A stretch of DNA of 64,000 nt from Candidatus Bathyarchaeota archaeon (GTDB lineage: Archaea; Thermoproteota; Bathyarchaeia; Bathyarchaeales; Bathycorpusculaceae), in the NCBI GenBank assembly GCA_963827165.1, contig CAWGZR010000012.1, forward strand, positions 32,001 through 96,000, written 5' to 3'. How positions within the stretch are numbered: position 1 is the first letter of the stretch; every line of letters starts with the position of its first letter. Below are positions 22,995 to 48,354 of the stretch, piece after piece. Under the pieces are notes generated by a model. That model ran no database searches and was not told the DNA's origin. It saw nothing but the letters and a program-made list of their open reading frames with translations. The translations under genes were made by a program, and so were the position numbers.

Positions 22995-23026
22995 AGGGGC
23001 CATAGGATTTGAACCTAGACCTCGGG
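22995..23026 (-). pseudogene. tRNA 3'-half-like fragment
   Basis: Minus strand CCCGAGGTC-TAGG-TTCAAAT-CCTA-TGGCCCCT reads as variable loop, T-arm and acceptor 3' strand; no 5' half adjacent. Confidence 0.55.
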
Positions 23027-23255
23027 GCATTATCGCCAGTTCTAACTTATTTCTATTCAGCCACTTTCCCTTTTTTGACTCAAAAAACAACAGGGCGTGT
23101 TTACTAGATAATAGTCATAAAATTTGGGGTTGTAACGCTATGTGGGTTGCTCTACATAGTCACAAGTAAACGCTTGGTTGTAGTTGCGCTTGTACAGTCA
23201 CACACATAGATTAAGGGCTTGTTTTCTTTTTTTCAGTGGAGAAAAACTCGTGAGT

Positions 23256-23689
23256 ATGAATATGGGCGGGGGCACAACGAGCTTAGTTGTTCCTCCCTTT
23301 CTTAAACAAGAATCTTTAATTATGATATTTGTCGCTCTCGGATTAGGAATTGTCGGAATGGCATTTGCAAGAATCCAGAATAAAGGTTCTTTTCAAATGC
23401 ACCAATCGATTATTACGGGAGCAGTTGCATTAAACTTGATTGCGATTTTTGTGGTAATGATTCCTTCGCTTATCTTTTTTTACCTTAGCTCAAGTTTAAC
23501 CGACATTTCATTTTTCTCAACATTACAGCTGATTCACGGCTTAATTGGGCTTCCAACAGTCATTTTTTCGTTAATGTTTGCATTCAATTTCTTACCTATT
23601 CGTACTAAAAATGGATGATAATAACTGCCATTTTATGGTTAACAAGCCTATATTTAGGTGCAGTGGTGTACGCTACCATGCCAAACTAA
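23256..23689 (+). CDS. DUF420/cytochrome-b-like 4-TM protein (frameshift in A-run ~23610)
   Basis: His in TM segments (MHQSII, IHGLIG); adding one A gives ...RTKKWMIITAILWLTSLYLGAVVYATMPN*. Confidence 0.55.
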
Positions 23690-23791
23690 ACCTCCACAAC
23701 AACATTGACTATCAACCGAAATCTCACGTGAACCCCGGTTAAGCGCAGACTTCACAGGACCATAAGCCACAATAAATAAAAAATTAGAAAA

Positions 23792-26700
23792 TTGGTGAAA
23801 GACTTGAGTTTTGCTGCTCTAATTCCCATCTTGATAATGGAAGGATTGATGGCTCTCTTCGCCGCATGGGCTGTCAAGAAGGGCTCGAAAATCAAGGCTC
23901 CAAGGGAAGCTTGGATGCTGCTCTTCCTCCTTTCAATGATGGCTGAGATGGCTATTAGTATCGTAATTTACCTCTACTTTCCCGGAGCACTCTCCGAAAA
24001 TCTATTGTTAAACATGTTTGTGATGATGGTCACAGTCTTCGCTTTTGCTATCTTGTATGTATTTGATGAACCCAAGACCATGGATGAAACTATATCCGGC
24101 ATTGTGCAGGTAAGATCCGTAATAATCGCGTTGATCGTCGCCTTGGTCCTCTTGTCTGAGGTATTCATGGCCTGGACCCTTGCACTCCTCGGGGGAACTG
24201 CAGCCACGGCTGGAAGCCTCCAAGAAATTTTCATTACAATAACTAACTCTTCAAGTTCTTACTTGTTCATCTTCATGAACTCGGCCGAAATGGCAATAAC
24301 ACTTTTTTTCATCAGAAAAAGACTGCCGAAGGAACTTAGCTGGCTCATTGCGTCTCAAGTTATCATAATGATCCTTTCTCCGACCGCGATTATCAACTCC
24401 GCTTGGGCGAGCCTCTCCCTGGCTGCCGGCAGCGCCATCATGACTTTTCTATTCATATACATCTTCAAGTTCCTGTATGGTAGCAAGACCTTGAGCAAAG
24501 GTATCCTGAACTATCTGCTCTTTCTTATGTTGGCCTATGCCATGATGATGGCAGGTCAGTTTATCTGGCTTCTTAACGGCGATGCCGCAGTTTTTGTGTT
24601 ATCCATAATAGTTGAGATGGTTGTGTACTTCGGAATAGTATTAGACGAGAAGAAGCTTATTTCTTCGAAGTTGGTAAACTGGCAAGCGATGCCGTATTGG
24701 GTCTTTGGCTTCCTCTTGCTTGTATTTGTGGTTGAGTTCTTTATGAGTGGGGTCATGGCCATCGAGGTGTACGGCCAGGGCTTTTTCAATGGAATAATAT
24801 CTGCTTCAACGACGTGGCCCCTTACACGAATATTGAGCGCGGGCTTTTACGTAGGAACGATGACTGTCTTCACGGCTTGGCTCATCAAAAAAGGCTCTGA
24901 GATCAAGACCTTAATTGACGCTGGCATTGTGCTCTTCCTCCTCTCGATGATTGCTACGACATTCATCAGTACAGTCGTCTACCTCTACGTTCAAGCGTCA
25001 TTTACACTCCTTGATCTGGTGGCCATTAACCTGGCGGTAGCAGGCATCACAACAGCTGCCATTCTTTTTGCAATACGCAAGGGAAACGATAGTCTCCTAC
25101 AGCTTAAGGTGAGCAACATCAGGCTCATTTTGTTTGTGTCAATCGTTGCCTTGGTTATCATTTCTGAGGTGTTTATGGGCTGGACCTTTGCGCTGCTTGG
25201 CGGTACAGTATCGATTTCTAGCGGTCTCCAATGGGTCTATTCAGCTCTTATACACGCTACGAGCTCTTTTTGGTTCATCTTCATGATGTCCGCCGAAATG
25301 GGAATAACACTTTTCCTAATAAGAGGCAGGCTGCCAAAGCCAGCCGTCTTGATTATGGCATCTCAAACCATAATAATGATTCTATCTCCCACAGCGATTG
25401 GCAACTCTCTTTGGACCAGCATCTCCCTGATTGCGGGCAGCTCCGTCATGATTTTTCTTTTCATTTACGTCTTTGAATTCCTTTATAAGAATCGGACCAT
25501 CAGCTCAGGCATACTGAACTATCTTCTCTTTCTCATGCTGGCCTACGCGTTGATGATGGCGGGCCAGTTCATCTGGCTTCTCACGGGAGACGCCACAGTC
25601 TTCGTACTCTCTATAATAGCTGAAATGATAGTGTACTTCGGAATCGTATTGGACGAAAGAAGACTTGTTTCATCCAAACCCGCAAGTTGGCAAGCAAAAC
25701 CGTATTGGATCTTCGGTTTCCTGGGGCTCCTTTTCGTGGCGGAGTTCTTCATGGGCGGAGTCTTGGACATCCAAGTGTATGGCACAGGCTTTTTCAATAT
25801 GATGATGTTTGCCCCCACTGCAGGGTCATTCATGAATGTTATAAGTGCGGGCTTTTTCAATTTCATAATGTTCTTCACCAGAATCACCATGTCTCCGTGG
25901 TACCTGATAATGATGGGCATAGAGATGGGCGCGCTTGTAGCCTTTAGAATCAAGTATGTACGGGAGATTGAAACTAAGGTAAGGCTCATGCTTTTGATTC
26001 TCGCTTACGCCGTATACAGTATACTCCTGCCCGTCTTCCTAATTCCCGCCCAACTTCTCGGCAAAATCCCCTGGCTAGGCTGGAGTATGGGCATAGGAAG
26101 CTCAGGCGCTATAGCTCCCGCAGTTTTAATTGCGTTGCTCGGCGCATTTCTGATCAGTGGCATTCTTTCCTTTCTTTTCGGTAGCAGGCAACTATGCTCT
26201 GTAACGTGCATGGCTCCCCTCATGTACCAAGGGACAACTATAGATGCCATGAACTCATGCAGTGGAACTTCCAAGCTTGCATGCAAGCTGCACACAAACA
26301 AAATATCATCCGCCTATAAGGTCGTCGTATCGGCGGTGTGGATCTCGCTTCTGGCTGCAGCTTTACTATCCTACTTGGCGTCTGTAGGAATTTCAGGAAT
26401 CTCTGTCTTCGGCATGGATCCAGCCTTCTTCCTGTTCATGTTTTACTTCGGCTTTCTCTGGTACGTTATTTGGATGATGATCCCCTTTGTCGGCACGTAC
26501 GGCTGCGTCTCAACTGGCATGTGTGGCTGGGGAGCTTTCAACCAGCTCATCTCCCGAGCTGGGTTGTTTAGGCTAAAGGTGAAGGACAAGGCGCTTTGCC
26601 GCAGCTGTACGACAAAGGACTGCTCGAAGGGCTGTCCCCTAGGTCTCACAGGTCAGCCGGCGGCGTTCGCTGCGAAGGGCGAGTTCAGAAACTACAAATG

Positions 26701-28003
26701 CATCGGCGACGGGAACTGCGTTTCGGCCTGCCCACACAGAAATATATCCTTCTACGATGTAAGACATTGGTTAAGGGAGCACGCACGTAAACCCATGACC
26801 ACAGGCTCAATCAGCTTTTTGAAGCTCTTATCAAGGAACATTAGAAGACGACCCTTCAGGAACATGGCAACAATACTATGTTTTGCCTTCATTGCAGCCA
26901 GCATACTATCCGCGGGATACCTAATCAGCGGAACCACCAACAGCCTTAACGTTGGAATATCACGAATGGGTGCTGACATAATGGTAGTTCCAGCAAATTC
27001 TTCCGCTGCAGGAGAATCTTTGCTCCTAAATGGACAGCCAACAACATTCTTCTTTAACAACAACCCAGTCCCAGAAATAATGAGAGACCCTGGAGTGGCC
27101 GCCGTCTCCCCCCAATTATACATTGCAACCCTCGGAGCCTCCTGCTGCTCTTACCCCATTCAATTAATAGGATTCAATTCCAGTCAAGACTTCACTATTA
27201 CGCCTTGGTTACAAACAAAACTTGTCGGAACCTTGAAGCAAAATGAAATCATTGTTGGAAGCGCCATTATAGGGAATGTAGGTTCCCAACTCGAATTTTA
27301 TGGCCAAAATTTCACCATTGCAGGAAAGCTGTCGCCCACAGGAATGGGGTTAGACGAGACGGTCTTCATGCGTATGCAAGATGCCTACGCTATGGCCGCT
27401 GAATCAAACACAACAGCGGTAGAACCTCTCAATATTCAATCTGGGCAGATCTCGGCAGTTTTAGTACGTGTGGCACCCGGTAACAGTATAGCAGGAGTGG
27501 CAGCTGTTCTCGGATCTACTATTTCAGGAGTTCAAGTTATTCAGTCGAGCGGGCTGGTAAACACCGTGGCGAACCAAATATCCGCCACTACCCAACTTCT
27601 GTATTTTGCTGCGGCTTCGGTCACTTTGGTTTCTCTTCCGCTGATTGCTCTTGTTTCTTCAATGGTGATTAACGAGCGAAAGAGAGAGATAGGTATTCTC
27701 AGGGCAACGGGTGCCACCAAACGATTCATTCTTAAACTTTTCTTCTCGGAAGCGATTGCTCTCGCCCTAATCGGCGGAATACTGGGTGTTTTTTCCTCTT
27801 TCATCATGATTTACAGCTTTCAGCATTTTATAGCACTTCAACTTCAAATACCCTTTCTCTGGCCGTCTATTGGTCAAACTCTTGCCGAAGCCGGATTGGT
27901 CCTGGTTCTTGTAGTCGGTGCCGGAGCCGCTGCATCTCTATATCCAGCGATAAAAAACAGTCGGTTAGAACCGTACAACGCGATAAGGAGCGGAGAATCT
28001 TGA
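23792..28003 (+). CDS. Multi-TM polyferredoxin (NapH/FoxG/FtrD-like) with tandem-duplicated membrane domain, fused to a MacB/FtsX ABC permease
   Basis: Repeat offset 336 aa; CSVTC, CRSCTTKDCSKGCP, CIGDGNCVSACP; MGADIMVVP, GASCC, ERKREIGILRATGA, YPAIKNSRLEP. Confidence 0.75.
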   Translation: MVKDLSFAALIPILIMEGLMALFAAWAVKKGSKIKAPREAWMLLFLLSMMAEMAISIVIYLYFPGALSENLLLNMFVMMVTVFAFAILYVFDEPKTMDETISGIVQVRSVIIALIVALVLLSEVFMAWTLALLGGTAATAGSLQEIFITITNSSSSYLFIFMNSAEMAITLFFIRKRLPKELSWLIASQVIIMILSPTAIINSAWASLSLAAGSAIMTFLFIYIFKFLYGSKTLSKGILNYLLFLMLAYAMMMAGQFIWLLNGDAAVFVLSIIVEMVVYFGIVLDEKKLISSKLVNWQAMPYWVFGFLLLVFVVEFFMSGVMAIEVYGQGFFNGIISASTTWPLTRILSAGFYVGTMTVFTAWLIKKGSEIKTLIDAGIVLFLLSMIATTFISTVVYLYVQASFTLLDLVAINLAVAGITTAAILFAIRKGNDSLLQLKVSNIRLILFVSIVALVIISEVFMGWTFALLGGTVSISSGLQWVYSALIHATSSFWFIFMMSAEMGITLFLIRGRLPKPAVLIMASQTIIMILSPTAIGNSLWTSISLIAGSSVMIFLFIYVFEFLYKNRTISSGILNYLLFLMLAYALMMAGQFIWLLTGDATVFVLSIIAEMIVYFGIVLDERRLVSSKPASWQAKPYWIFGFLGLLFVAEFFMGGVLDIQVYGTGFFNMMMFAPTAGSFMNVISAGFFNFIMFFTRITMSPWYLIMMGIEMGALVAFRIKYVREIETKVRLMLLILAYAVYSILLPVFLIPAQLLGKIPWLGWSMGIGSSGAIAPAVLIALLGAFLISGILSFLFGSRQLCSVTCMAPLMYQGTTIDAMNSCSGTSKLACKLHTNKISSAYKVVVSAVWISLLAAALLSYLASVGISGISVFGMDPAFFLFMFYFGFLWYVIWMMIPFVGTYGCVSTGMCGWGAFNQLISRAGLFRLKVKDKALCRSCTTKDCSKGCPLGLTGQPAAFAAKGEFRNYKCIGDGNCVSACPHRNISFYDVRHWLREHARKPMTTGSISFLKLLSRNIRRRPFRNMATILCFAFIAASILSAGYLISGTTNSLNVGISRMGADIMVVPANSSAAGESLLLNGQPTTFFFNNNPVPEIMRDPGVAAVSPQLYIATLGASCCSYPIQLIGFNSSQDFTITPWLQTKLVGTLKQNEIIVGSAIIGNVGSQLEFYGQNFTIAGKLSPTGMGLDETVFMRMQDAYAMAAESNTTAVEPLNIQSGQISAVLVRVAPGNSIAGVAAVLGSTISGVQVIQSSGLVNTVANQISATTQLLYFAAASVTLVSLPLIALVSSMVINERKREIGILRATGATKRFILKLFFSEAIALALIGGILGVFSSFIMIYSFQHFIALQLQIPFLWPSIGQTLAEAGLVLVLVVGAGAAASLYPAIKNSRLEPYNAIRSGES

Positions 28004-28743
28004 TTGTCGTCTCTGAACTTTCAAAAGCTTACAGGAAAGATATTGAGCCAGTTGAAACCAAAAGCTCTGACGGCAGCTCTTACATGCGCACCGTCGACTA
28101 TTTTAGAGCGGTTCAGAATGCCACTTTTTCTGTTTCAAAAGGAGAGTTTGTATTAATTTTAGGCCGCTCTGGAAGCGGAAAAAGTACATTGCTCAGCATG
28201 TTGGGAGGCCTCACCGCTCCCACCGAGGGTGTCGTCAGGTTGAATGACAAAAATCTATGGTCTATGTCTGATGAAGCTTTGTCTCATCTTCGAGCAGAAT
28301 ACATAGGTTTTGTTTTTCAGTTCTCAGGCTTGTTACCGACATTAAATGTTTTGGAAAACGTGATGTTGCCTTCCCTATTCGTTAAAGCGAAAGAAGACCC
28401 AATAAAGCGCGCTCGTAAACTCCTTTTAGATGTTGGACTTGATTCGAAGATCCAGTCGTTTCCTTCTGAGCTTTCTGGGGGCGAGCTCAAAAGGGCTGCA
28501 ATAGCTAGAGCTTTGATCAATGATCCTTTGCTCATCTTGGCGGATGAGCCGACGGGGGATTTGGACGTGGACACTGAAAGGGAAATTATGGAGCTTTTCA
28601 AAGAGATTAATCGGCAGGGAAAAACTATTCTTATGGTTACTCACAACCCGGAACTTTCAAGTTACAGCAGCAGAGTTATTAGAATGGAAAAGGGAAAAAT
28701 AAGTGAGCCACTATTCCATCTGTCCTCAGAAGAAACTGTGTGA
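28000..28743 (+). CDS. LolD/MacB-type ABC ATPase
   Basis: GRSGSGKS, GFVFQF, LSGGE, ADEPTGDLD, VTH. Confidence 0.92.
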   Translation: MIVVSELSKAYRKDIEPVETKSSDGSSYMRTVDYFRAVQNATFSVSKGEFVLILGRSGSGKSTLLSMLGGLTAPTEGVVRLNDKNLWSMSDEALSHLRAEYIGFVFQFSGLLPTLNVLENVMLPSLFVKAKEDPIKRARKLLLDVGLDSKIQSFPSELSGGELKRAAIARALINDPLLILADEPTGDLDVDTEREIMELFKEINRQGKTILMVTHNPELSSYSSRVIRMEKGKISEPLFHLSSEETV

Positions 28744-29037
28744 TATTCGGCCCTTGATGACTTAACATGTTGGTTTATCCCTAAATTGTTTGTTGAAGTA
28801 TGTTTGGGAACGTGCTAGCTCGAAAAGAGTTACGATCGCCTTATTCAGCTTGAATTTTTTTGAGCCTTTTTATTTGCGTGCAACACTGAAAAATGCGGTA
28901 AATATGCAAAGGAAACTTTTGGATATTGTAAATGAAAAACAAATATCGCTGTTGTGAAGACTGGGAACTGAAAACAGTATCTACAGTTACGTGTGCGTAT
29001 TTCTTGGTGCGTTAAAGGTATGTTTAGTTCATCCTTT

Positions 29038-29247
29038 TTATCGCGGGGTCTTTGACGGCTTAGCAAAGTAAACAGCAATTATGCCCAAAATGAATGCGAC
29101 CGCGCCGAGAACTATTAACCCCGATTCGTTAGGCTTATACATCATCAACCAACTCATTAGGGTTTGGGCGCCTAGCCCAATGCCAATGATGATTCCACCT
29201 GCCAACGAAAGGATGCATCCAACATATATTAACCATAATTTTGTCAT
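29038..29247 (-). CDS. Small 2-TM membrane protein
   Basis: 69 aa, ATG start, two hydrophobic helices, basic tail. Confidence 0.55.
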   Translation of the reverse strand: MTKLWLIYVGCILSLAGGIIIGIGLGAQTLMSWLMMYKPNESGLIVLGAVAFILGIIAVYFAKPSKTPR

Positions 29248-29419
29248 AATTAGCTCACAAAATTATCTTTTGGGGCTGTCTAGTACATAAGGTTTGCCAA
29301 ATCCGCGTGCAGGCTTGTCCCGAAATTACTAATGTTTGTTTTGAGAAGAGGGTCTCACAAGCTTCACAAGAAGCCTTGCACGTTGTAAATGTAACATCAC
29401 TTTTATAAATTCTAAGTGT

Positions 29420-29932
29420 CTATCCTGGCAAAACGGTTACGAATCCGCCCATATATCCAATCTGACCAGGTTGACCATCGCTGCCAGTCATCATCGCCCA
29501 ACCACCCGCATCCGTGTCGCATGGAAAAGTGCACCACCAACGGTAAACACCTGCCGTTGCCTCGTTAAACTGGAAATTAGACACCGTCGGAACCCCAGTT
29601 TCGTTGCTTGGCAGAACCACAAAGTTCACCCCCAAGGTTGGGCTAGTAAAGCTATGCTCTCCGTCGTCATAGTTTATAACCGTTAAATTGACTTCTTGAT
29701 CTGTATAAACGGTGAAGTTGCATGGAGTAAAAGCGTCGTGCATTAAGCCGTCGGGACCGAGTTTCACGTCACCTTGAACTACCAACGTTATATCTGCTGT
29801 TTTTGGTGTACTGGAAGCTGTGGCTGTTGCAGGTTTTATATCGTAGCCAATTATCAACCCGAGCACAACGGCAGCCATGACTACGACAACGAAAGCAAGC
29901 CAAACTATTTTCGACAAATCACCATTGCTCAA
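29420..29932 (-). CDS. Membrane-anchored cupredoxin-domain protein
   Basis: N-terminal TM, VNLTVINYDDGEHSF, GVYRWWCTFPC...WAM, MGGFVTV. Confidence 0.75.
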   Translation of the reverse strand: MSNGDLSKIVWLAFVVVVMAAVVLGLIIGYDIKPATATASSTPKTADITLVVQGDVKLGPDGLMHDAFTPCNFTVYTDQEVNLTVINYDDGEHSFTSPTLGVNFVVLPSNETGVPTVSNFQFNEATAGVYRWWCTFPCDTDAGGWAMMTGSDGQPGQIGYMGGFVTVLPG

Positions 29933-30450
29933 GGGTAATCATCATAAAAGTTGTTTAGCGTTTATCTAAAAAGATTGTGGTTTTTACCATCTTTATTCTT
30001 CTTTTTAGCGTACTGCATTGTCCAAATATTACGTGTTAATGACGTTAGCTATGATGAAAAAGGACGTTGATTTCGACAAAGAATTCAGAAAGGATCTCAT
30101 TGATAAAATCAATTCTTCTCTTATTAAACTAACAGCTTTTATAGGGTGAAGTATCAACCAGCAACCAGGTAACAGTGATTTCTGAGGACGGATAGCTCGA
30201 TGGGGACAATCCAGAATGTCTATTTATCGATACAGACTCTTGGGTTCCGAAACGGTTTCTTGAATCTCTTTATCGATCTCTTCCAAAATATTTATCAGCT
30301 TATTAGTTAAGTCGTTGCATCTTTGAGGTTTCCTTTTCTGAAACTGGGCAAACATTACCTTAAGCGCATAAATTTGTTGTAATTAGCTTTTTGGCTGCTA
30401 TCGCCATCAATCAGCAAGAGCAGGGATTTTTTTCTTAACTCTATTTGCAT

Positions 30451-30879
30451 TCAAGCCTTGCCTTCCCCCACTTGTCTTTGTTTGATAACTTCTATCATTT
30501 TTGGCAAAAACTCGATAAACTGCTCTTTCTCCGCATAAATCGATTTTTCAACTACCTCAATCAAGTTGTTAACTAAGATTCTACAGGCTCGTGTAACAGC
30601 CTGTAACTTGTATTCAGTGACCACATGAGTAAACGTGCTCCAGGCTTCTGCTTTCCCAGAATCGAAGAGAAAAATAACATTGCCCTTGATTTCGCCATGA
30701 ACGCTTTTCGATGTATCCGGTTTCCACAGAACAATCAAGCTTATGCCTAACTGATCGAGGCAATCCTGCATCTGCTTCTGAACTAAAGCAAATTGAGCTT
30801 TGGTCTTTCTTATGTTGACGCCTTTAATAGCGGAGTTTGAGAACGTATCTCGACCCTGAACTTCAACCATAACTTTCAA
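30451..30879 (-). CDS. Hypothetical element protein
   Basis: Overlaps upstream ORF (ATGA-type junction); HGEI and TFTHVVTEY resemble a degenerate zincin motif. Confidence 0.55.
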   Translation of the reverse strand: MKVMVEVQGRDTFSNSAIKGVNIRKTKAQFALVQKQMQDCLDQLGISLIVLWKPDTSKSVHGEIKGNVIFLFDSGKAEAWSTFTHVVTEYKLQAVTRACRILVNNLIEVVEKSIYAEKEQFIEFLPKMIEVIKQRQVGEGKA

Positions 30880-31166
30880 GGTGCCTCCTTATCGTCATGG
30901 CTATGTATGTCAGTGAAGGATGGTTGAAAAGACGCGTTTGTGAAGGTTCGCTTTAGTGCCTGGTAGCAATTCTCACAGCGTCTAAGTATGTCTTTTTGAG
31001 GCGTCATGATTTGCTTTGTGACTGCTAAAGCTCCGCAATCTTCGCATTTTTCGCCGCTTGGAAGCTCTTTAACGTAAAATATAGGCTTTTGCTTATTTGC
31101 TTCGTTTTCGTTACTGTTTCTTTTGATTGCCTTCGCCGAATATAAGCGAATTGCCGCTGTTTTCAT
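30876..31166 (-). CDS. Small Zn-finger protein
   Basis: CEDC...CENC; overlaps replicase 3' end. Confidence 0.55.
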   Translation of the reverse strand: MKTAAIRLYSAKAIKRNSNENEANKQKPIFYVKELPSGEKCEDCGALAVTKQIMTPQKDILRRCENCYQALKRTFTNASFQPSFTDIHSHDDKEAP

Positions 31167-34100
31167 TCTTCTCTGAAACTACGGGGTTTACTGGCTCTTG
31201 CTTTTCTGGTTTGCCGTTTGTGCCGTCTTTGCCGACCTCAGAAAAGGAATCCCTGCCCTCCGCTTGCTCAGTTCTTTCCGTTTCATGGGGTGGGTGTTCT
31301 TTTTTAGCGTCGGCAAGGCAGGCAAGAGCGGCAAAACCGTTAGTTACCTTATGTGCTTCCACCAGTTTTGCCGTTTGATAGTATCCTCGATTGACTTTTA
31401 CCAAGCCTTCAGTTTGAAGAATAGCCATGAGAGGGCGGAGCTGGTTTTTCTCTGTCAGCTCAAATTTGGCTTTGATTTGCTCTTGTGTTGTGCCGCCGGA
31501 GAGCAAGATGAACTTTAGGATTTCAATTAACTTTTCAGTCTCTATGGGTTCCTTTGTCAACTGCCCTTGAATTCTCCGCAGCAGCAATTCTACATCTTCA
31601 AGCGTTAGCCGCTCCATGTGTTCGGTTTGCGCTAGGGCGTTTAGACCTGCTCGGCTGTACTCCTCTTCTAAGGTTTCGCAAACGAGCGCAACGTGGTCTT
31701 TTGTTACGATTAGCTGGGTGAAGTCTTCTGTTGACAGCGTGAGGTAAGCCATTGAGACGCTTAGGCGTGCCAGCTTCCATTTCATGTCCGCGGAGATTAT
31801 AGGGATTTTGTCATAGTGGAACTTGTTCATTAACTCTGTTGCTTTTTCAAGTAGGTATGCCTGAGCATCTGGCGTCCATGTGATTTGAGTCTTGGCGATC
31901 CATGCCCATTTGAGCGCTTCAGCCAGCAACTCCAGTTCTGGTTCATGTTTAGCGTCGGTTGCTTTGTTGATTTGCTCAGGCGTTACATCCCGTTGGTCTG
32001 CAAAAACCGCTAAGTCGCGTCTTGCGATTGATGTCTTGTCTTCTACCGTTGCGAGCGCCTGGATCGGGTAGAGAAATTCTTTCAGCGGCTTTGTAGTGTA
32101 TTTGTCGGTTTCTCTGTCGACGGCGTTGAAGATTTTGATTTGGCGTGTACGTGCGTATGCATTGCCTTTTCCTGCTTTGATTATGGTGACTTCTCCGCTG
32201 CGTTCTGCCTCTGCAGTGACGGCCCATTGTGATGCGGAGAGTTTGTGGCAGCCGTCCATTGCTAAGATTTTGCGGTCCATCAGCGGCAAGAAGCCCCATT
32301 CGATGAACCAGCCGCCGCTTTCTCCCTGCACAGCCGCGCCTACTAAGCCAACAATGCTTGCGGTTTCTGCGCTGACATACATTCCAGCCTTCAGCAAGCC
32401 CTGGATTAATTTCTTGACGGTTTCGCTCTTCCCGACTGTTGAGTCTCCTATGACGTCAACTATGCCCCAGCCATGCTGGACTTCGCCGAAGAGACTAACG
32501 TATGTTGGCGTGAACGAGCACAGGAGGACGGCTTTGGCTATGTTGCGTCTACCGACTATGTGGGTGTAGAGTTCGCAGTTGTCCAGTATCCAGTTTAGAC
32601 GTTCTTTTGGTGTTTTGCTTTCAAGTTTTGCCTTTAAGTGACTGAGTTTGTTGAGATCAAATTGTTCTATCTTTTCTGGGAAGCTGATTTCATAGGCTAA
32701 TAATGTTGTTTTTTGTGTGCGGGGGTGAGGTAGTGGTAGGCCTGTGACGGCTATGAGTCTCGCTGGGCTGGAAATCTAAGGGTTTGTCGGTAGCGATGTA
32801 CATGTCCAGATACTTGTATTCGTGGCCTTTGTCGTCTACGAGTTTGGTTCCCTGCTTCACGAGGGTTGAAACGGGTGGTCTGACCCGGACCAAGATAGAC
32901 TGTGCGGTATCTCTTGATGCCGATTGAAAGCACTTTCCCCTTGAACATTCTTTTGAGGCGGTTCAGTTTTGTCTCATCTTGAATGCCCACAAGTGCCAAG
33001 TTTACGGGGTTGTCGATTTTCAGAATTTGGTTTTCTGTTTCGGGTTCTTGGTTGTCCTCTTTTGTTATGGCTTCTATTTCTGAGGGTATCATGTAGCTGG
33101 TGCTTGTGCTGCTTACTACGGCTTCGACTGAGACGGGGCTGCCTGATAATTCGGGGTTCTCGATGTCGTTGATGTGGCTAAGCAGGATCGGCTTTTCGAG
33201 TTGGCAGTCGGGTAAGCAGTAGCCATATTCCTTGATTGATTGGCAAGTTGCTGTTTTCTCTGGGTCTACGCTTTCAACTTGGTCGCTGCAGACATCATAG
33301 TCAAAGTCGCTTTGCGACCTGAAAAGATCAATGACTTCTTGGTCTGAGTAGCCAAGTCTTTTGTATTCTCCTGCTATTGCAAGCCGCATTAGGTGTCCGT
33401 TGCCGTTGATCAGTTGCTGCTTTAGGGCTTCTACGATGCAGGGTCTGGGTTGCTTGAGGTGCCTCAACCTGGCCTGAGTTAGCGCTGGCTTTGCTGATTT
33501 TTCTTTCTTGTATAAGCCAACGTTTTCCAATGCTTCGTAGAACAGGGTTTCAGCGTTATCGACGATTGTTATTACGTTGTCGTTTTCTCAAGGCTGTATC
33601 CTTCGCTTGGCGCTATGACCATTAGTTGGCCGTGGCTTAGCAGTTCCATTCCTGTCTTGCTTGGTTTGGCGCCTTTTGCTGGTGATCTTGAGAAGTAGAT
33701 TAGGTGGTTGCCGCCTGACCTTGTTTTCTCTCGGTAAGTTGTTTGCATTTGTTTAGAGCTTGCAGGGTTTTCTGTTTGATGTCCTCACTTAAGTTTGGGT
33801 CTTTGATGTCTCGGTCAATGCCGGTGAGGTAAACTGTTTTTCCGTCAACCGTCAGCTTTGTTCCGCAGACTAAACCAAACATTGTATATCTTTCAAAGTG
33901 TAATTCGTTAAATTCTTGTTCTGATTGAGGTCGATCTTGCCATTGCTTCCACGTTTCTACCGCTGGCCGCTTCTCATACTCTTTTTTCTTGTCGTTCCAT
34001 GAGAGAATGAAGGGGATGACTGAAACGCCTTTTTGATGCCATATTTCAGCGGCTTGGAGCAACATCGTATTTTCAGACATCATTGTCACCCTTCTCAATA

Positions 34101-34347
34101 GTTTTGGCGAAAATTGGTCGCATGCTTCGCTGCGGGCTATCTGGTTGATTCTTCCCTTGGTACATCGCCCTGCCCAACTTGAGCAATCCCAACAGCGGTT
34201 TATGGTCTCTCCATTGATGGCTTGACTAAGTAAATTAGCGGCAAGTGCTGTGCATTCTTCAATCGTGTCAGCATAGCCTACAAGCAGAGGTCTATCGTCT
34301 TCTTGTATTTCAAAAGTCGATGTTTCGTTATAGCTTTGGACAGCCAT
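31111..34347 (-). CDS. Replicase: Prim-Pol + PriL-CTD-like Cys domain + MCM-like AAA+ helicase + wHTH; one gene with four frameshifts (~33750, ~33585, ~32893, ~32760); alternative start ATG 34083
   Basis: GIDRD, TRSGGNHLIY, VIAPS; PCI..GHLMRL..TCQSIKEYGYCLPDC; GDSTVGKS at 32448-32425, ILAMDG, SIARRD. Confidence 0.75.
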
Positions 34348-34410
34348 ATCGAGGTAACACTCCTATCTGACCAGTCCTTAGTAAACCTGTTGTGAAGGAG
34401 CAAAATCTTC

Positions 34411-34590
34411 TCAAACGTTTGCCTCCAGACCTCTTTCAAAAACTGGATGTATAGTTATTTTGCCATTAACTTCTAGTGCAATTGCAATTATTTTTTTACC
34501 AGCTTCTCGCTCGGCATTGTCTAACCAACTTTTTGGTAAGGTTATGCCTTTGGAGGCACCGACTGTCGTTAATTTTCGTATTATGGGCAT
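34411..34590 (-). CDS. AbrB/MazE/SpoVT-family DNA-binding protein (59 aa, not in ORF track)
   Basis: Hand translation MPIIRKLTTVGASKGITLPKSWLDNAEREAGKKIIAIALEVNGKITIHPVFERGLEANV. Confidence 0.75.
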   Translation of the reverse strand: MPIIRKLTTVGASKGITLPKSWLDNAEREAGKKIIAIALEVNGKITIHPVFERGLEANV

Positions 34591-34673
34591 TTTTTGTCAC
34601 ATCTTTTCTTTTGATATAATATTACAAAATCCTTATAAGCATTGTTTGGCATAGTACGACTGGTAATGTCATA

Positions 34674-35460
34674 TTGTCAAGGACAAAAACTTCAATTAAA
34701 CCCGAAACAAAAATAATGAAGGCGTTTGTCACAAATACAGAACTAAAACAGTATAAGATGCCTAAAGAAACTGGTCTCAGTTATCGAACAGTTCTAAGAA
34801 CCCTTAAACCCTTGGAAAGTCAAGGCTTCATTAAATTAGTCAGGGTTGAGCCTTCGAAAAAAGGGGGAAAAGAAAGCAAGATTTACGCTTTAACATTAAA
34901 AGGGGTCCTAACTTGCCTAAGCTCATTTTCGCCCGTATTCCCCAGCGATTTTGAAGCGAACGGAATAATTTCATTCCTCGATTGAAAAAGTAAACGAAGT
35001 CATTAAAATCAAAATTAAACCATACAACTTGAAAGATATTACCAACTTCTTAAAAATCTCAGGCACTGACTTAGACTTTCCGATTTTTAAGGAAATAGAT
35101 TGGCTTGAGGCACGTTTTGGCATAGATATTTTTCGAGCATTTATAACTGCCGCAAGAGAAGCTACAGCCAAAGATAAATTGCCTAATGTGGACAGTGTGA
35201 GGAAGATTATGATAAATCATGAAGGTAAGAGTCCTGAGGAAGCTGAAGTAACAATAAAAGAATTCTTAAACATGCAAACCGCATTTTTGCGTGATACTTT
35301 TACTGAGGCTTTCGCTTTCCAGCTTTCATACTTACACAGCAAGGGCGATTTTCACAATGAAAATCTGCATCGCATTTTCGCTAAAGTGGCAACTGAAATT
35401 GAGCAAAGAAATCAAAGCTCCATTGCTCCATTAAGGCATCTGGTTGAAACTCTGAAGTAG
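34674..35460 (+). CDS. Winged-helix regulator, probably one gene with a frameshift at ~34975
   Basis: TGLSYRTVLRTLKPLESQGFI, KIYALTLKG; the +1 frame runs from ~34975 into ORF 35029-35460. Confidence 0.65.
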
Positions 35461-35550
35461 GCGCATGTTACTTCATATTTCCTTTCTGATTAACTTGAAA
35501 AAAGATAGTGCACAAGGGTCAGCGAAGCCAGCAGAAAACGGAGCAAGGTT

Positions 35551-36252
35551 CTATCGCTTATTTAATTCCATAATATCACCATTAACTTCGATGAAATAGA
35601 AGAGAACCGAGCTTACCAAATTGCCATAGCGTTTGAGCCATTCTTGAGGGACTCGTTTGTCATTTCCAAATACAAGAAATTGAATTTGCGCCTTTGTTTT
35701 TTCAAGCATCCAAACGTGTTCAGCAATGTTTGAGAATTTTGCAGGCGGCAGTTTCTCCCCTTTTACCATAGTGAGGTATTTTGCGTCACCGACTATAGCA
35801 TAATCGTCAGATACAAGATCAAACATTTTTCCCCAATTCTCTTTCTTTCTATGTCTAAGAGGCGTGGCAAAATAGTCACTCATTACTTTCTGCGCTATTA
35901 ACTCAAAAGCTATTCCTGGTGAAGCCAAGACCGTGCTATTTGGAGTGAATGAATTTTCTTTGTTTTGATAATTTTCAAGTTTATCGAGTTGTGTTGAAGT
36001 ATTTTGTTTAGTAAAAGTGACCGCGGTATCTTCCAAGTTAACTTGGGTTACTCGCCAACCGCAAGCTAACCAGCCGTCTTCAGCTTGCACGTGAGTTTTA
36101 TCGTTTGACCACCAAGCTCTATATGCTCTAGCGGATCCTGGAAGGGGAAAACCGAGTATATCCTCGAGGGCTCGGAATCTAATTTTTACCGATTCTTTTC
36201 CTGATGTAACCAGGTATTGATAAAGAGGCGCGTATTTCTTCATATTCAGCAC
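35551..36252 (-). CDS. DUF7662-like N-terminal domain + PD-(D/E)XK nuclease
   Basis: KYAPLYQYL..ILGFPLPGSA..AWWSN; FELIA..FDLVS..IVGDAKY. Confidence 0.6.
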   Translation of the reverse strand: MLNMKKYAPLYQYLVTSGKESVKIRFRALEDILGFPLPGSARAYRAWWSNDKTHVQAEDGWLACGWRVTQVNLEDTAVTFTKQNTSTQLDKLENYQNKENSFTPNSTVLASPGIAFELIAQKVMSDYFATPLRHRKKENWGKMFDLVSDDYAIVGDAKYLTMVKGEKLPPAKFSNIAEHVWMLEKTKAQIQFLVFGNDKRVPQEWLKRYGNLVSSVLFYFIEVNGDIMELNKR

Positions 36253-36468
36253 TCCCTTTGTCGCAATTATTGGTCGCGTTCGAACTAATAAATAATACCT
36301 TTTTTAAATAATAAAGGTATGACAGTTTTGATTAAATGATTGTGACTGTAAGTGAGAGCTTATTAGCTAAAGAGACCAAATATAGTCTTTTGACTTTAGA
36401 GAGGGTTAGTTACGGCTAAACAGTTAAACTTAGACTTAAAGGCAACAAAAACATCTAACGGAGCCAAT

Positions 36469-37992
36469 TTGGGTTTTGAGGCTAAGTTGTGGATGACTGC
36501 CGACAAGCTGCGTAATAACATGGACGCTGCAGAATACAAACATGTTGTTTTAGGCCTAATTTTTCTCAAGTATATTTCTGATGCCTTTACAGAGGTTTAT
36601 AATGATTTGAAGAATGATAAACTCGCTGATCCTGAGGATGTCGATGAGTATAGGGCTCGGAATGCTTTTTGGGTTCCGGCTAAAGCGCGTTGGGATTTTT
36701 TGCAAAAGAACGCCAAACAGCCAACCATTGGAATAACAATGGATGATGCGATGGATGCTATCGAACGGGAAAACCCCAGCTTGAAGGGTGTTTTGCCCAA
36801 GAACTATGCCCGTGAAAGTCTGGACAAGCAGAGACTTGGAGAGCTAATCGATTTAATCGGCACCATAGGCTTAGGCGATAGGGAAAGCCGGAGCAAAGAC
36901 ATCCTCGGCAGGGTTTACGAGTATTTTCTGGGTCAATTTGCTGATGCTGAAGGCAAGAAAGGCGGCCAATTCTACACTCCCAAAAGCATCGTTCAACTTC
37001 TCGTGGCCATGATTGAACCTTTCAAGGGCAGAGTCTTTGACCCATGCTGTGGCAGCGGCGGCATGTTCATACAAAGCGAAAAATTCGTAGCCGCCCACCA
37101 AGGACGCTTAGACGACATACACATCTTTGGGCAAGAATCCAACCAAACAACCTGGCGCCTCTGCAAAATGAACCTCGCCATAAGAGGCATAGAATCAAAA
37201 GAAGTAAGATGGAACAACGAAGGCAGCTTCCTAAACGACCTCCACAAAGACCTAAAAGCAGACTATCTATTGGCTAATCCGCCGTTTAATGATTCTGACT
37301 GGAAAGGCGAAATGCTAAGAGAAGACAATCGCTGGAAATACGGCACACCCCCCGCAGGAAACGCAAACTTTGCATGGGTACAACACTTCATACACCATTT
37401 AGCACCTCATGGCATAGCGGGTTTTGTGCTTGCAAACGGCTCAATGAGCAGCAACACGTCAAACGAAGGAGAAATACGCAAAAACATGATCGAAGCCGAT
37501 TTAGTGGATTGCATGGTAGCCCTGCCCTCCCAACTATTCTACAACACAATGATACCAGCATGCCTATGGTTTGTTGCAAGAGATAAGCAAAATAATAAAT
37601 TCCGAGACCGCAGAGGCGAAGTGCTGTTTATTGACGTTCGAAAGCTTGGAGTAATGGCTGACAGAAGGCATAGAGAACTAACACCAGAAGACATCAAGAA
37701 GATTTCCGATGTTTACCATGCGTGGAGAGGAGAACGGGTAGATGGACAAGCAGTAGAATACCGAGATATTGCTGGATTCTGCAAAGTCGCAAGACTTGAG
37801 ACCATTAGGAAACAAGGACACATACTAACACCTGGACGTTATGTTGGCACTGAAGCGCAAGAGGAAAATCATGAAGAATTTAACAAGAAAATGAAGCAGT
37901 TTATCGCTGAACTTTCAGAGCAAATAGAAGAAAGCAAGAAGCTTGATGAAGAAATAATGAATAGTTTGGAAAGTATCGGATATGGCGCCTGA
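36469..37992 (+). CDS. hsdM: Type I R-M methyltransferase
   Basis: [19 protein letters not shown]; homologous frame extends up to ACG at 36412. Confidence 0.95.
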
Positions 37993-39332
37993 GGACAAAG
38001 TACTTTTCAAACAAACTGAGATAGGAATGATTCCTGAAGATTGGAGAGTAGTTAGCACGAATGAAGTAGTCGCCTCAGAGAAAAATTCTTTAAAAACTGG
38101 GCCATTCGGAACCCAGCTGAAGAAATCCTTTCTTGTTGCAAAAGGCTTTAAAGTGTACGGACAAGAAAATGTTTTTCGAAATGATTTTTCTTTCGGGGAT
38201 AGATTTATACCAAAAGAAAGATTTGAGCTCTTGAAATCCTGTGAGCTGAAGCCCGGCGATATAGTTATATCCAGAATGGGAACCGTCGGCCTATCAGCTA
38301 TTGTACCTGGCAATATTCAGCAAGGAATAATGGATTTCCATCTTTTGAGGCTAAGACCTAATCGCTCAAAATTTGACGCTGAGTTTCTCCTTTACGCTAT
38401 TCGTTCCGAAGTAATCCAGAATCAGATAAACTCGCTTTCTGTCGGGACTATTATGGATGGATTGAGTTCCAAAGTGATTGGAATGCTAATGTTCCCAATG
38501 CCTTCGCTCCCAGAACAAAAAGCCATTTCGAAAATCTTAAGAAACTTTGATTCGAAAATTAAAGTCAACTCAAAAATGAACCAAAATCTGGAGTCCATCG
38601 GGCGGGCCATTTTTAGTCGTTGGTTTGTTAATTTTGAGTTTCCTAACCAAGAAGGTAAGCCCTATAAATCATCAGGCGGAGAAATGGCGGAATCAGAAAT
38701 AGGTTTAATTCCAAAAGACTGGAAAATTCTCCAAAATATTTCTGAGGCTTGCGAGTTGATAAATTATGGTTACACTCAAAGTGCCAGTAATGAGAACGTT
38801 GGTCCTCATTTTCTAAGAGTGATGGACATAAACAAAGCGGATTGGGTTAATTGGGGTACTGTTCCATTTTGTAAGATTTGTGAAAAAGACAAACCGAAAT
38901 ATTTGCTCAAAATGAAAGATATCGTTATAGCCAGAATGGCTGACCCTGGTAAGATTGCGATTTTTGAGTCAGATTTAGAAGCTATTTTTGCGTCGTACTT
39001 AATTAGAATACGTTTGAAAAACCCACATTATGGGTATTATTTTTACCATTCTTATGAAGTCGCCGTATTATCAAAATTTCATAGAAGGGGCTACTACTGG
39101 CTCAGTTCAAAAAAATCTAAATGCTAAATCGTTAACATCAAACTTACCGGTAATTATACCTAACAAGGAAGTAACTATTTTGTTTGACTCTATCATAGAG
39201 AATTTACGAGCTAAAATAAACTGCAACTTGGCAGAATCTACTACTTTAGCCAAGGTTAGAGATAGCTTGTTACCAAAACTCATGTCTGGAAAAATTAGAG
39301 TTCCTATCGATAACAAAGTGGAGTCGTCTTAA
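37982..39332 (+). CDS. hsdS: Type I R-M specificity subunit (frameshift ~39049)
   Basis: Two TRD repeats (EIGMIPEDW / EIGLIPKDW), LPEQKAI, C-terminal [15 protein letters not shown] in the second frame. Confidence 0.9.
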
Positions 39333-42300
39333 TGTCTTCGGTTATTACTGAGTCGCAAGTTGAAGAATCCTGTCTTGACTTATTTAGAAATCTTGGGTAC
39401 AGCGTGATTTCTGGTCCTGATATTTCTGAGGGCGGAATAGCTGAAGAACGTAAGTACTGCGAGGTTGTGCTTGTTGGCAAGGTTAAGGATGCTTTGAGGC
39501 GAATTAACAAATCCATTCCTGAAACCGCTATCGATGAGGCTGTTAAGAAGGTTTTAAGAACTGAGAGTCAGGAACCGGTGGCTAACAATCAGCTTTTCCA
39601 TAAGTTAGTAACCGATGGAGTTGATGTTCAGTACAAGCGAGAAGACGGCAGTATCAAAGATTCCAAAGTTTGGCTTTTTGACTTTAAAGACTTAAGTAAT
39701 AATGAGTTTTTGGCTGTTAACCAGTTTACGATTATCGAGGAGCGCAATAACCGGCGACCTGACATTATCTTATTCGTTAATGGGTTGCCGCTGGTTTTGA
39801 TTGAATTGAAGAATCCGGCAGACGAGGAAGCTACTATTTCTTCTGCCTTTAAGCAGTTTGGAACTTACCAGAAAGAGATTCCGTCAATTTTCCGCTACAA
39901 CGAAGTCTTAGTCATCAGCGATGGAACCTATGCGAAAGCTGGAACCATGACTGCAAAAGAAGAACGCTTTTCACCCTGGAAAACAATCAATGCCCAAAAA
40001 ACACCAAAAACCCAGCCACAAATCGAAGTCCTAACAAAGGGAATGCTTAACAAATCAACGCTCATGGATTTAATCGCGCACTTTGTTGTTTATGAAGCTG
40101 AAAAAGACAAGAAAGAAGGCACCGTCAAACTTTCTAAGAAAATCGCTCAGTACCAACAATACAACGCAGTCCAAAAAGCCCTAACATCAACGGTGAATGC
40201 TACAAAAAAAGATCGAAAAGCTGGCATTGTTTGGCATACGCAGGGTTCAGGAAAAAGCTTAACGATGGTTTTCTATACTGGGAAATTGGTTTTGAACCCT
40301 GCCCTTGAAAACCCAACGGTAATTGTGTTAAATGATAGAAATGACTTAGACGACCAGCTTTATGGAACTTTTAGTAGATGTCATGCTCTTTTGAGGCAGG
40401 AGCCACGGCAGGCAACAAGCAGGGAAGAGCTAAAAGAGCTTTTGCAAGTCTCATCAGGCGGCATAATTTTCACAACTATCCAAAAGTTTTTCCCAGAAGA
40501 CCAAGAAACAAAATATCCCCTACTATCCGAAAGGAAAAACATAATAATTATAGCCGATGAGGCGCACCGAAGCCAATACGGTTTTGGACTTAAGGTGCCA
40601 AAGAACGTTGATTCTGAAGCTCTAAAGTATGGTTATGCTAAATATCTTCGGGATGCTTTGCCCAATGCAACTTTTATTGCTTTTACGGGAACTCCGATTG
40701 AAAAGGCAGATAGAAGCACACCTGCAGTTTTTGGAAAAATAATAGATACTTACGACATTAACCAGGCTGTTGAAGATGGCTCCACGGTTAGAATCTATTA
40801 TGAGAGCCGACTTGCCAAAATCGAGCTTAAACCAGAAGAAAGACCATACATTGACCAGGAGTTTGAGGAAGTTACCGAGGGCGAAGAGTCAGCGGGCAAA
40901 GAATACCTCAAGAGCAAATGGAGCCGACTTGAAAGGCTCGTTGGCAGCCAGGAACGCATCAAACGGGTAGCCAAAGACATTGTGGATCACTGGGAGAAAC
41001 GTGTTAGCGTTCTTGATGGCAAAGGCATGATTGTTTGCATGAGCCGTCGCATCTGCGTGGACCTGCATAATGAAATAATTAAGCTCAAACCTGAATGGTA
41101 TAATCCAGATGATGACAAAGGGTACCTCAAGGTTGTGATGACTGGGTCAGCTGCGGATGGACCAGATTGGCAAGAACACATTCGCAATAAGCAGCGCAGG
41201 CATGACCTTGGGGAACGCATGAAAGACCCCTCCGATCCCTTCAAAATAGCCATAGTCCGTGACATGTGGCTAACCGGCTTTGATGCGCCAAGCCTCCACA
41301 CAATGTATCTTGACAAGCCTATGAAAGAAGCCAACTTAATGCAGGCCATCGCACGGGTTAACCGAGTCTTCAAGGACAAAAAAGGTGGTTTAATCGTTGA
41401 CTACATCGGATTAGCAAACGACCTAAGAAAAGCCCTTGCAGAATACACAGAGGACGACAGAAGACTAACCGGCATTCCGCAAGAAATGGCAATAGCCAAA
41501 ATGCAAGAAAAATACGAAGTTGTAAAGGCACTTCTTCACGGCTTTAACTTTCAAAAATTCTTCGCAGCCCCAGCAAACGAAAGAATGACCATCATGCTAG
41601 AAGCAATGGATCACATATTAAAACAGGAAAACGGCAAAGAACGCTACCTCAAAGAAGTCAACGCCTTGCTCTGGGCTTTCGCTCTCTCGGTTCCAGATGA
41701 TCAGGCTTTGAAAATTAGAGATGATGTGGGCTTTTTCCAAGCTGTGAAAGCAGCCATAATCAAGAACACTGAGACTAAATCAAGCCAAGAGCAAGACGTA
41801 GATACAGCAATAAAGCAGATCATTTCAAAAGCCATCATTAGCGACCGAGTAATCGATGTCTTCGCTGCCGCTGGACTCAAGAAACCAGATGTCTCCATCC
41901 TTTCAGAGGAGTTCTTGGAAAAAGTTAAGGAAATGCCGCAAAAGAATCTCGCCTTTGAAACCCTAAAACGTCTCCTAAATGATGAGATTAGGTTTAGGCA
42001 GAAGAAGAATCTGATTCAGGCCCGCTCGTTTGAGGCGCTGTTGGATAAGGCGATTAAGGCTTATACTAACAAAAGTGTTGAGACAGCTCAGGTTATAGAG
42101 GAGCTAATTGAGCTTGCAAGGAAAATGCGGGAAGAACAAAAAAGAAACACCGAGCTAAATTTGAGCGAAGAAGAAATCGCTTTTTACGATGCTTTAGCCG
42201 ACAACGAAAGTGCAAAACAGGTTCTTGGCGATAAAACGCTGCAGGTTATGGCACGAGAGCTTGTGGATATGGTTAGAAAGAACGTTACGATCGATTGGAC

Positions 42301-42454: not shown

Positions 42455-42546
42455 ACAAGTTATAATGGGGATGCAATAAGAATTGAAAGCCTCTAAAACA
42501 ATTGAGACAGCCGACTTTTGACTTGCTGCTTCAAGTGTGAAAAACC

Positions 42547-48323: not shown

Positions 48324-48354
48324 CTTGTATAGCTTTACCTATATTAATGATACT

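Follow-up and report, generated by a model that had tools for sequence, protein, structure and literature searches.

The window analysed here is a 64,000-nucleotide (nt) stretch from a Candidatus Bathyarchaeota archaeon (assembly GCA_963827165.1, contig CAWGZR010000012.1, positions 32,001 to 96,000 of the forward strand), and coordinates below refer to it unless another contig is named. Translation of the minus strand between 31,000 and 34,500 revealed five stop-free pieces in alternating frames (34362-33703, 33784-33575, 33587-32754, 32962-32693 and 32775-31114). Together with a sixth frame piece at the 3' end they make up one gene (30876..34089, minus strand), which has about 1,071 codons in intact relatives, as indicated by collinear tblastn matches of the proteins P0151 and P0155-P0160 and by DNA alignment to the intact locus L004. 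The gene probably specifies the replicase of an integrated element, a chain of about 1,070 amino acids composed of a Prim-Pol domain, a PriL-like domain with four cysteines, a collar and AAA+ motor of the type found in BcMCM, a winged helix and a zinc ribbon.

Homologues encoded in single open reading frames (ORFs) connect the pieces. P0151 (intact, 1,070 amino acids, cluster of 30) is collinear with every piece at 70-95% identity in tblastn and then continues, in another frame, into the ORF at 30876-31166. Locus L004, from a metagenome-assembled genome (MAG) titled Candidatus Bathyarchaeia, contains an intact orthologue of 1071 amino acids (ORF 2321..5536), and a search for intact relatives found fused proteins of 1,040-1,082 amino acids in many assemblies. 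A paralogue from the same genome (contig C13, 879 amino acids, single ORF) reads straight across the third and fourth of the breaks described below, as do many database proteins. Searching the 554-amino-acid piece against 1.84 billion representatives returned 1,756 proteins with E<=0.001, among which 144 reach E<=1e-30. Many are 900-1,100 amino acids long with a helicase part that begins near residue 440. The cysteine-rich stretch matched 27 proteins, including P0151 and eight others of 984-1,139 amino acids. The best match in a metagenome scan for a nearer intact relative had 93-95% amino acid identity, not closer than L004. Because these single-ORF homologues are collinear with the pieces, the joins reflect homology and not chance. 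This bears out the preliminary description of the locus, made from the sequence alone, which had proposed one chain of about 1000 amino acids and had named consistently separate genes among the homologues as the result that would speak against it; fused forms occur in many assemblies. Public records name family members 'hypothetical protein' or 'bifunctional DNA primase/polymerase'. Within the 90% cluster of P0151, members P0182-P0188 and P0191, on contigs of 1-7 kb, include several internal fragments of 122-588 amino acids and several with tails that do not align to P0151, which suggests that the replicase is frequently annotated as fragments elsewhere among public assemblies.

Mapping the indels against the intact orthologue L004 showed that the replicase runs from a GTG at 34089 (VTMMSEN) to 30876 with five internal breaks. 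Eight indel events separate the two regions, which are 91.9% identical (287 substitutions in 3,532 columns); positions are on the minus strand. An in-frame insertion of 6 nt lies at 34311, and an extra base at 34094, where relatives' contigs are without one base, fuses the upstream gene to the replicase. Break 1 is the loss of 1 nt at 33751 (AAA-CAA against AAACCAG), and relatives carry an extra C behind 33748. Break 2 is a gain of 2 nt at 33590..33591 (CCTTGAG against CC--GAG), two letters that contigs from the runs X1, X3 and X7 are without at 33590. Breaks 3 and 4 are single-nucleotide gains outside homopolymers, at 32893 (TATCTTGG against TATC-TGG) and 32757 (GAGACTCAT against GAGG-TCAT), and both are seen against L004 and against relatives' contigs. 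Break 5 (31113..31129) consists of the loss of 4 nt at 31129 and of 1 nt at 31113, so that 16 nt stand where the intact relative has 21, and relatives show five single letters added at 31112-31131. Break 1 splits the Prim-Pol domain and breaks 3 and 4 cut the helicase N-terminal domain; breaks 1-4 sum to +3, which returns the helicase end to the frame of the gene start. With five internal breaks and a sixth indel that fuses the upstream gene, the window copy as written cannot encode the full replicase. The alignment corrects the earlier limits of the gene (31111..34347). The earlier proposal of pieces joined through four single-base shifts holds for the joins, which the collinear homologues confirm, and fails on the count, since there are five breaks and one of them is a 2-nt insertion. 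All the motifs listed in that description (DRD, TRSGGNH, VIAPS, PC..H..R..C..C..C, GDSTVGKS, MDG and SIARRD) were located on the minus strand.

The N-terminal part of the protein is a Prim-Pol catalytic domain (Pfam PF09250; 33605..34089) from the superfamily of archaeo-eukaryotic primases (AEP), with the motifs GIDRD (33808-33822), TRSGGNH (33704-33724) and VIAPS (33605-33619), all on the minus strand. DxD and sGGxH motifs define AEPs, and in the family alignment the first aspartate of the catalytic DxD, D92, is invariant and the second, D94, is conserved in at least 90% of sequences. PF09250 matches the intact L004 protein with 29.0 bits against a cut-off of 22.8 (E 1.7e-06) and is found in 10 of 28 family members. 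The 70-amino-acid piece of the window taken alone stays below the cut-off (15.1 bits, E 0.034), as the domain is split by the break.

The Prim-Pol domain is followed by a helical domain with four conserved cysteines (33204..33455, minus strand), whose family profile was compared with a profile of cellular PriL built from 11 PriL sequences of the source genome and its relatives. Its conserved stretches are RPC (33429-33446), GHLMRL with the conserved histidine and arginine (33381-33398), ATC (33237-33251) and YCLPDC (33204-33221). Among 28 sequences, C50, C124, R48, R68, E74 and F89 are invariant, and C115, C128, H65 and others are conserved in at least 90%. The profile-profile comparison with hhalign gave a probability of 94.8% and an E-value of 5e-08 over 81 columns, in which C50, H65, R68, G79, D94, C115 and C124 align with the invariant PriL residues C199, H215, R218, G229, D244, C272 and C281; the fourth cysteine pair (C128 and PriL C288) lies just beyond the end of the alignment. 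The spacing of the cysteines is 64/8/3 in the replicase domain and 72/8/6 in host-type PriL. A predicted model has a confident five-helix core, with a predicted local distance difference test (pLDDT) score above 90 for residues ~45-125, and its Foldseek rows, all at E>0.001, are headed by PriX (E 0.49, probability 0.92); the 4Fe-4S domain of human PriL and the helper domains of RepB', NrS-1 and pRN1 are also among them.

Two results count against this assignment: the Pfam Fe-S domain (PF04104) was matched in only 1 of 28 members and below threshold (E 0.0069), and Foldseek returned nothing at E<=0.001 for the model. In addition, Pfam gave no match on the window piece of this domain, and a single-sequence search of the PDB produced chance-level matches only (best E 0.11, interaptin). 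We conclude that sequence profiles support a homology between the four-cysteine domain and the C-terminal Fe-S domain of the cellular PriL. The domain may bind a 4Fe-4S cluster, with zinc as the other option. The same domain also precedes D5_N/Pox_D5 helicases of superfamily 3 (SF3) in P0163 and P0176, which indicates that it travels with the primase. Sister proteins have at this position either a PriCT_1 domain that lacks the cysteines (P0002, P0025 and P0052) or a CHC2-like zinc ribbon (P0006 and P0111).

The helicase module comprises an N-terminal domain of the BcMCM type (32596..33185; LLSHIN...RTVY / VRVRPP...FQPS / RLIAVTG...), covered by the hhalign alignment with BcMCM, and an MCM-like AAA+ core (31900..32595) identified by Pfam, by sequence matches in the PDB and by hhalign. 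On the minus strand the core carries Walker A GDSTVGKS (32425-32448), Walker B LAMDGCHKL (32239-32265), AEAERSG (32194-32214), sensor-1 IFNAVD (32116-32133) and the arginine finger SIARRD (32014-32031). Pfam MCM (PF00493) matches the window piece with 45.4 bits against a cut-off of 23.3 (E 6.9e-12), and all 32 PDB sequence matches of the helicase are MCMs (best E 4.5e-08). A profile of 67 family sequences aligns with BcMCM over 448 columns that include both collar and AAA+ (profile positions 3-464, E 4.3e-47). Against the host MCM, the alignment of the same profile covers 234 columns of the AAA+ part only (profile 204-452 to MCM 280-529, E 1e-15), and the helicase N-terminal domain did not align with that of the host MCM in hhalign. 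The blastp comparison with BcMCM agrees with this picture (25% identity, 673 columns, E 9e-27), and the best match among phage records is BC1863, that is BcMCM, from the Bacillus cereus prophage phBC6A51.

The Walker B motif has an Asp-Gly where the MCM family has Asp-Glu, so that the glutamate is missing from the window helicase. We tallied this site in the best 150 representatives, of which 135 cover it and 15 do not: DG was found in 90, DE in 38, DA in 3, EE in 3 and DK in 1. The DG form persists down to ~35% identity, and DE occurs in BcMCM and in distant forms that are mostly fused to DnaG-type modules. Walker A K116, sensor-1 N217 and arginine-finger R252 are 99-100% conserved in both the DG and the DE subgroups, and alignments with MCM6 and the host MCM were drawn on for the same motifs. 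Since Asp-Gly extends across the clade with the other catalytic residues kept, the missing glutamate is a family trait and not damage, and the pattern of conservation identifies it as a trait under selection. The presence of Asp-Gly throughout the archaeal clade implies that hydrolysis either uses another residue or is slow. A candidate for a relocated catalytic residue is E189, the clade-specific glutamate of AEAERSG, at which the DG group shows 99% conservation and which the DE group lacks; cellular MCM carries both the Walker B glutamate and the AEAE-type glutamate. The His/Gln of the D-G-x-H/Q-K stretch may also serve as a substitute.

Downstream of the motor lies a winged helix-turn-helix (31387..31539, minus strand; residues 413-463 of the last piece), recognised by a TFIIE_alpha match at E 0.00049, below the Pfam cut-off, which recurs in 9 of 28 family members; ScpB-type matches were found in relatives. 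The chain ends in a zinc-ribbon tail of the form CxxC...CxxC (30876..31112, minus strand; CEDC at 31032-31046 and CENC at 30966-30977), which P0151 and the C13 paralogue also have and which break 5 severs here. It now lies within the separate 96-amino-acid ORF 30876-31166, to which residues 989-1029 of P0151 align in another frame.

These comparisons recover the domains proposed in the preliminary description: a Prim-Pol, over the cut-off in the intact orthologue and in the ten members named above; a PriL-like Fe-S domain, favoured by the profile comparison and its aligned Cys, His and Arg; an MCM-like motor, given the Pfam score and PDB matches that are all MCMs; an atypical Walker B, conserved across the clade; and a wHTH, by the sub-cut-off TFIIE_alpha match on the last piece. 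Its label of a divergent MCM fits the AAA+ core, which aligns with MCM, and needs amending for the protein as a whole, as among characterised proteins it stands nearest to the phage-type BcMCM and not to the cellular MCM. A single-chain primase-helicase, as it had suggested, is supported by intact homologues and domain matches, its activity being a prediction.

The extra base at 34094 puts a conserved small zinc-ribbon gene (34090..34347, minus strand; CWDC...C..EAC) into one frame with the replicase, as comparison with L004 revealed. Its counterpart there is an 84-amino-acid ORF (2070..2324) whose TGA overlaps the GTG of the replicase (GTGA), an arrangement that marks the two genes as translationally coupled in this intact relative, to judge from the overlap. 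The small protein matched no Pfam or PHROG family. Weak copies of its cysteine motif were seen on contigs C11, C9 and C3 of the source genome.

The replicase belongs to an integrated mobile element of a peat archaeon. Two genomes of the same genus (G004 and G003) join window position ~22462 directly to ~48325-48343, so that the region of ~22.5-48.3 kb is an island of about 25.8 kb (22470..48330). A tyrosine integrase lies at one end (46944-48323, minus strand; Pfam E 7e-06, just below the cut-off; PHROG integrase E 1.5e-11). Pfam and PHROG matches further identified a 1403-amino-acid FtsX-like protein with 4Fe-4S dicluster (Fer4) motifs (23792-28003), an intact type I restriction-modification (R-M) system hsdMSR (36469-42454), and genes for an ABC ATPase, a cupredoxin, AbrB/MazE-like, wHTH, DUF7662 and ParB-like proteins within 22470-48330. 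The ends of the island share no direct repeat of the att type (longest shared word 11 nt) and no repeat family spans them; neither a tRNA, an Rfam RNA family nor informative tandem repeats were found for the island. The block 30835-34259, which holds the replicase, is shared at 90-99% identity with peat and soil metagenome contigs that diverge on both sides of it, which indicates a mosaic module. Twelve of 20 related genome loci are titled Bathyarchae- or Bathycorpusculum, and the others are titled uncultured archaeon (2), Nitrososphaerales, Nitrosarchaeum, Thermoproteota and Nanoarchaeia or are bacterial-labelled MAG contigs (two). The flanks of L004 match contig C3 of the source genome at 71-82%. 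The host has its own MCM of 678 amino acids elsewhere in the genome.

As to the origin of the breaks, we lean slightly towards real mutations that inactivated the gene in a resident island whose R-M system and integrase are retained. At exactly the positions of the breaks, indels distinguish the window from relatives' contigs, and outside the replicase the window codes cleanly, with Pfam matches over full length, except for the gene KamA. Only 4 of 139 orthologue pairs (3 loci) showed a frame switch in the genome background, and the indel density in the replicase is about 85 times that background per base. The neighbouring long island genes (1403, 1040, 507 and 459 amino acids) are intact, and they also led us to reject low coverage of the whole island as a cause. 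Several of the replicase indels are insertions outside homopolymers, and +1, +2 and -4 events all occur there. Frame switches in the source genome cluster in a few genes, KamA having two, as expected of dead genes, and the fragmented hsdM on a sister element on contig C13 was also counted in favour of real decay.

The KamA gene, a lysine 2,3-aminomutase (radical SAM + LAM_C; 11230-12577, plus strand), switches frame near 11421 and 11870; its orthologues in four relatives of the same genus are intact at 458-477 amino acids, and a GNAT acetyltransferase gene follows at 12576-13133.

Several observations weigh against real decay and are better accommodated if the gene is intact in the organism and the breaks are consensus errors, made where reads of replicase modules 90-99% identical to one another piled up; we regard this as quite conceivable, if on balance not what we expect. 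Read in the frame of L004 the gene has no in-frame stop, and its ratio of non-synonymous to synonymous substitution rates (dN/dS) against L004 is 0.12 for the whole gene and 0.048 for the AAA+ part. The window branch has 13 synonymous and 7 non-synonymous substitutions and the L004 branch 40 and 15 (Fisher p 0.57), so that the substitutions look selected and no relaxation is visible, yet 7 frame-affecting indels stand beside these ~20 polarised substitutions. Every indel has a substitution relative to L004 no more than a few bases away and falls inside the element-shared block with its loose ends at 30835 and 34259, where mixed reads from 90-99% identical elements could have corrupted a long-read consensus. 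Contigs from the runs X1 and X2 that are 98-99% identical to the window have gaps across the break regions, among the matches listed, as would fit strains that are nearly identical and have the frames intact. Nine of ten other contigs with the replicase have it in a single frame; the sole other broken copy found, L008, comes from another long-contig MAG, is broken at different sites and lies on a contig where split genes abound. The source genome itself is in 14 contigs and shows background frame switches among its host genes, and other assemblies contain some short P0151-cluster members whose tails are out of frame. None of the sequencing runs searched for the source DNA contained it (best word share 0.18). 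Consensus error is in turn opposed by the elevated indel density, by the intact long genes next to the replicase and by the events outside homopolymers, as well as by the intact copy P0189 on a contig of 315,903 bp, which shows that long contigs do not always break the replicase.

The L008 locus covers 15.4 kb of a MAG contig of 215 kb. Overlapping ORF fragments on the same strand are numerous there, for example a gene of ~590 amino acids in four pieces at 22-1812, and the contig looks like a generally indel-ridden assembly. Because genes on it are split throughout, we rejected L008 as a case of recurrent natural pseudogenisation. In the source genome, frame-switch signatures relative to relatives' proteins were seen on C5 (~321.9-322.9, ~318.4 and ~963.9 kb), C3 (~171.7 and ~219.9 kb), C2 (~39.8 kb), C4 (~180.9 kb), C11 (~16.4 kb) and C9 (~173.6 kb); inspection of these sites by eye gave no common motif or long homopolymer. 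The cellular PriL gene of G004 (C33:102635-103193) is divided into two pieces next to each other (profile positions 6-137 and 132-213), and this genome may have frame breaks as well.

Programmed recoding across the breaks, by ribosomal frameshifting or transcriptional slippage, would profit from the return of the first four shifts to the starting frame and from the position of break 2 next to GAGAAAAC, but five sites of differing sizes and directions without a common slippery motif, absent from nine of ten related contigs and different from those of L008, make it very improbable.

Fused and helicase-only forms are both common in the family. Among 104 representatives that cover the helicase motor, the number of residues upstream of it is at least 380 in 51, 300-379 in 4, 120-299 in 38, which are helicase-only forms, and less than 120 in 11. 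The 55 long forms include 13 with a Prim-Pol, 1 with an AEP-TOTE domain, 25 with DnaG-type modules and 16 in which nothing was recognised at E<=1e-05. The helicase-only forms, and the absence of a primase both inside the C13 paralogue and within ~8 kb of it, could suggest that the pieces in the window are naturally separate genes for a split primase, a linker and a helicase; that reading is hardly credible, as the breaks lie inside conserved domains (in the Prim-Pol between DxD and sGGxH, and in the helicase N-terminal domain), the pieces overlap out of frame and lack starts of their own at the joins, and orthologues at 90% identity are single ORFs.

The C13 paralogue belongs to a second related element in the source genome (C13:48000-63695). 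It is helicase-only, 56% identical to the window protein, and has a zinc finger in place of the primase; a weak integrase match lies just downstream, and of this element's hsdM there remain only pieces that lie in different ORFs (N6_Mtase positions 2-120 and 262-310). Distant members in the range P0091-P0150 have DnaG modules of the bacterial type (CHC2 zinc ribbon + Toprim) and Walker B Asp-Glu, and P0139 additionally bears Hint + LAGLIDADG domains resembling an intein. Microbacterium phage genes annotated 'DNA primase/helicase' also match the helicase.

The closest relative among characterised proteins is the BcMCM primase-helicase, so the AEP-MCM fusion as an architecture is of a kind already known. 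Both proteins are one chain with an N-terminal AEP, a helical region resembling PriL/PriCT and the same helicase module. They differ in that the primase of BcMCM is of the DNA_primase_S (PriS-like) type and that of the replicase is a Prim-Pol (PF09250), so that homology over collar and AAA+ is here combined with an upstream AEP of another Pfam family; BcMCM also has a weak PriL/PriCT signal (E 0.0014 and 0.005) and a canonical Walker B IDE, is borne by a bacterial phage, and shares ~25% identity with the replicase. BcMCM is described as hexamer-forming, with primase and DNA polymerase activities beside that of a 3'-5' helicase (PMC3273815; PMC2715239), and its Walker B mutant D711A is reported to retain reduced ATPase activity with unwinding that persists (PMC3273815).

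Cellular MCM shares the Walker A, S.ETAS.VGL.GAA.Q, AEAE.., IKAG, ARTR...N and SIARxD stretches of the AAA+ core, but it aligns over this core only and has the Walker B glutamate that is replaced by glycine in the replicase. In the hhalign alignment the C-terminal domain of PriL shares with the replicase three cysteine ligands along with the His, Arg, Gly and Asp that are invariant, whereas the domain of the replicase is shorter and is fused in cis to Prim-Pol and helicase instead of forming part of a separate subunit. The replicases of the pRN1 ORF904 type have the same order of Prim-Pol, helix-bundle helper domain and helicase, with an SF3 motor where the present protein has an MCM-like AAA+. 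Catalytic and PriL-like parts are described in one chain for PolpTN2 (PMC3973330) and the monomeric Nanoarchaeum equitans primase (PMC10250227), neither of which has a helicase. Kazlauskas et al. 2018 (PMC5862659) showed a relationship between PriCT-1/2, the PriL Fe-S domain and PriX, which come after the AEP domain in replicases of mobile genetic elements, some of them with an MCM-family helicase and a winged helix at the C-terminus; bacterial elements of this kind combine an AEP, then a PriCT or zinc-binding domain, a helicase (including the MCM family) and a winged helix. For thaumarchaeal elements, primpol-SF3 fusions and stand-alone MCMs are described (Krupovic et al. 2019, PMC6563490).

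A mechanism can be proposed by analogy with BcMCM, pRN1 ORF904 and PriSL, in which the zinc modules and the winged helix of an intact replicase would locate the element's origin. The AAA+ part would, likewise by analogy, assemble as a hexameric 3'-5' helicase, and the tethered Prim-Pol would prime the unwound strand while the PriL-like domain might hold the initiating nucleotide. With the primase tethered to the helicase in this way, a single gene product would supply both functions of a primosome.

A full-text literature search (subscription journals and supplements, e.g. PMC5862659 Table S1/Fig. 6, lay outside it) found no description of an archaeal replicase that joins a Prim-Pol, a PriL-like domain and an MCM-like motor, nor of an MCM clade with Walker B Asp-Gly. 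While AEP-MCM fusion replicases are known, the archaeal variant thus appears undescribed in the literature searched, in which such fusions come from a Bacillus prophage and bacterial plasmids, and archaeal integrated elements carry primpol-SF3 fusions or stand-alone MCMs. We put forward, as a tentative and rather doubtful proposal, that the archaeal BcMCM-like branch consists of distinct self-contained primosomes with a Prim-Pol, a true 4Fe-4S domain of the PriL type and a hexameric motor that lacks the Walker B glutamate and has relocated the residue for hydrolysis. If this is true, the branch would represent a new catalytic arrangement within the MCM clade and a natural case of PriS-like and PriL-like functions joined to a helicase in a single polypeptide.

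For annotation, the locus calls for caution, since the replicase appears in gene calls as four to six short, unrelated ORFs, and artificial breaks of the gene may arise in long-contig MAGs. An Asp-Gly motor that keeps every other catalytic residue bears on how strictly helicases of the MCM class need the Walker B glutamate, and the compact four-cysteine domain of the PriL type, fused in cis, is a possible tractable model for the disputed role of the Fe-S domain in primases. Across the family, primase modules (Prim-Pol, AEP-TOTE and DnaG-type) are freely exchanged on one helicase chassis, and Bathyarchaeia and some neighbouring archaea carry a widespread family of one-gene primosomes, as predicted from their domain composition.

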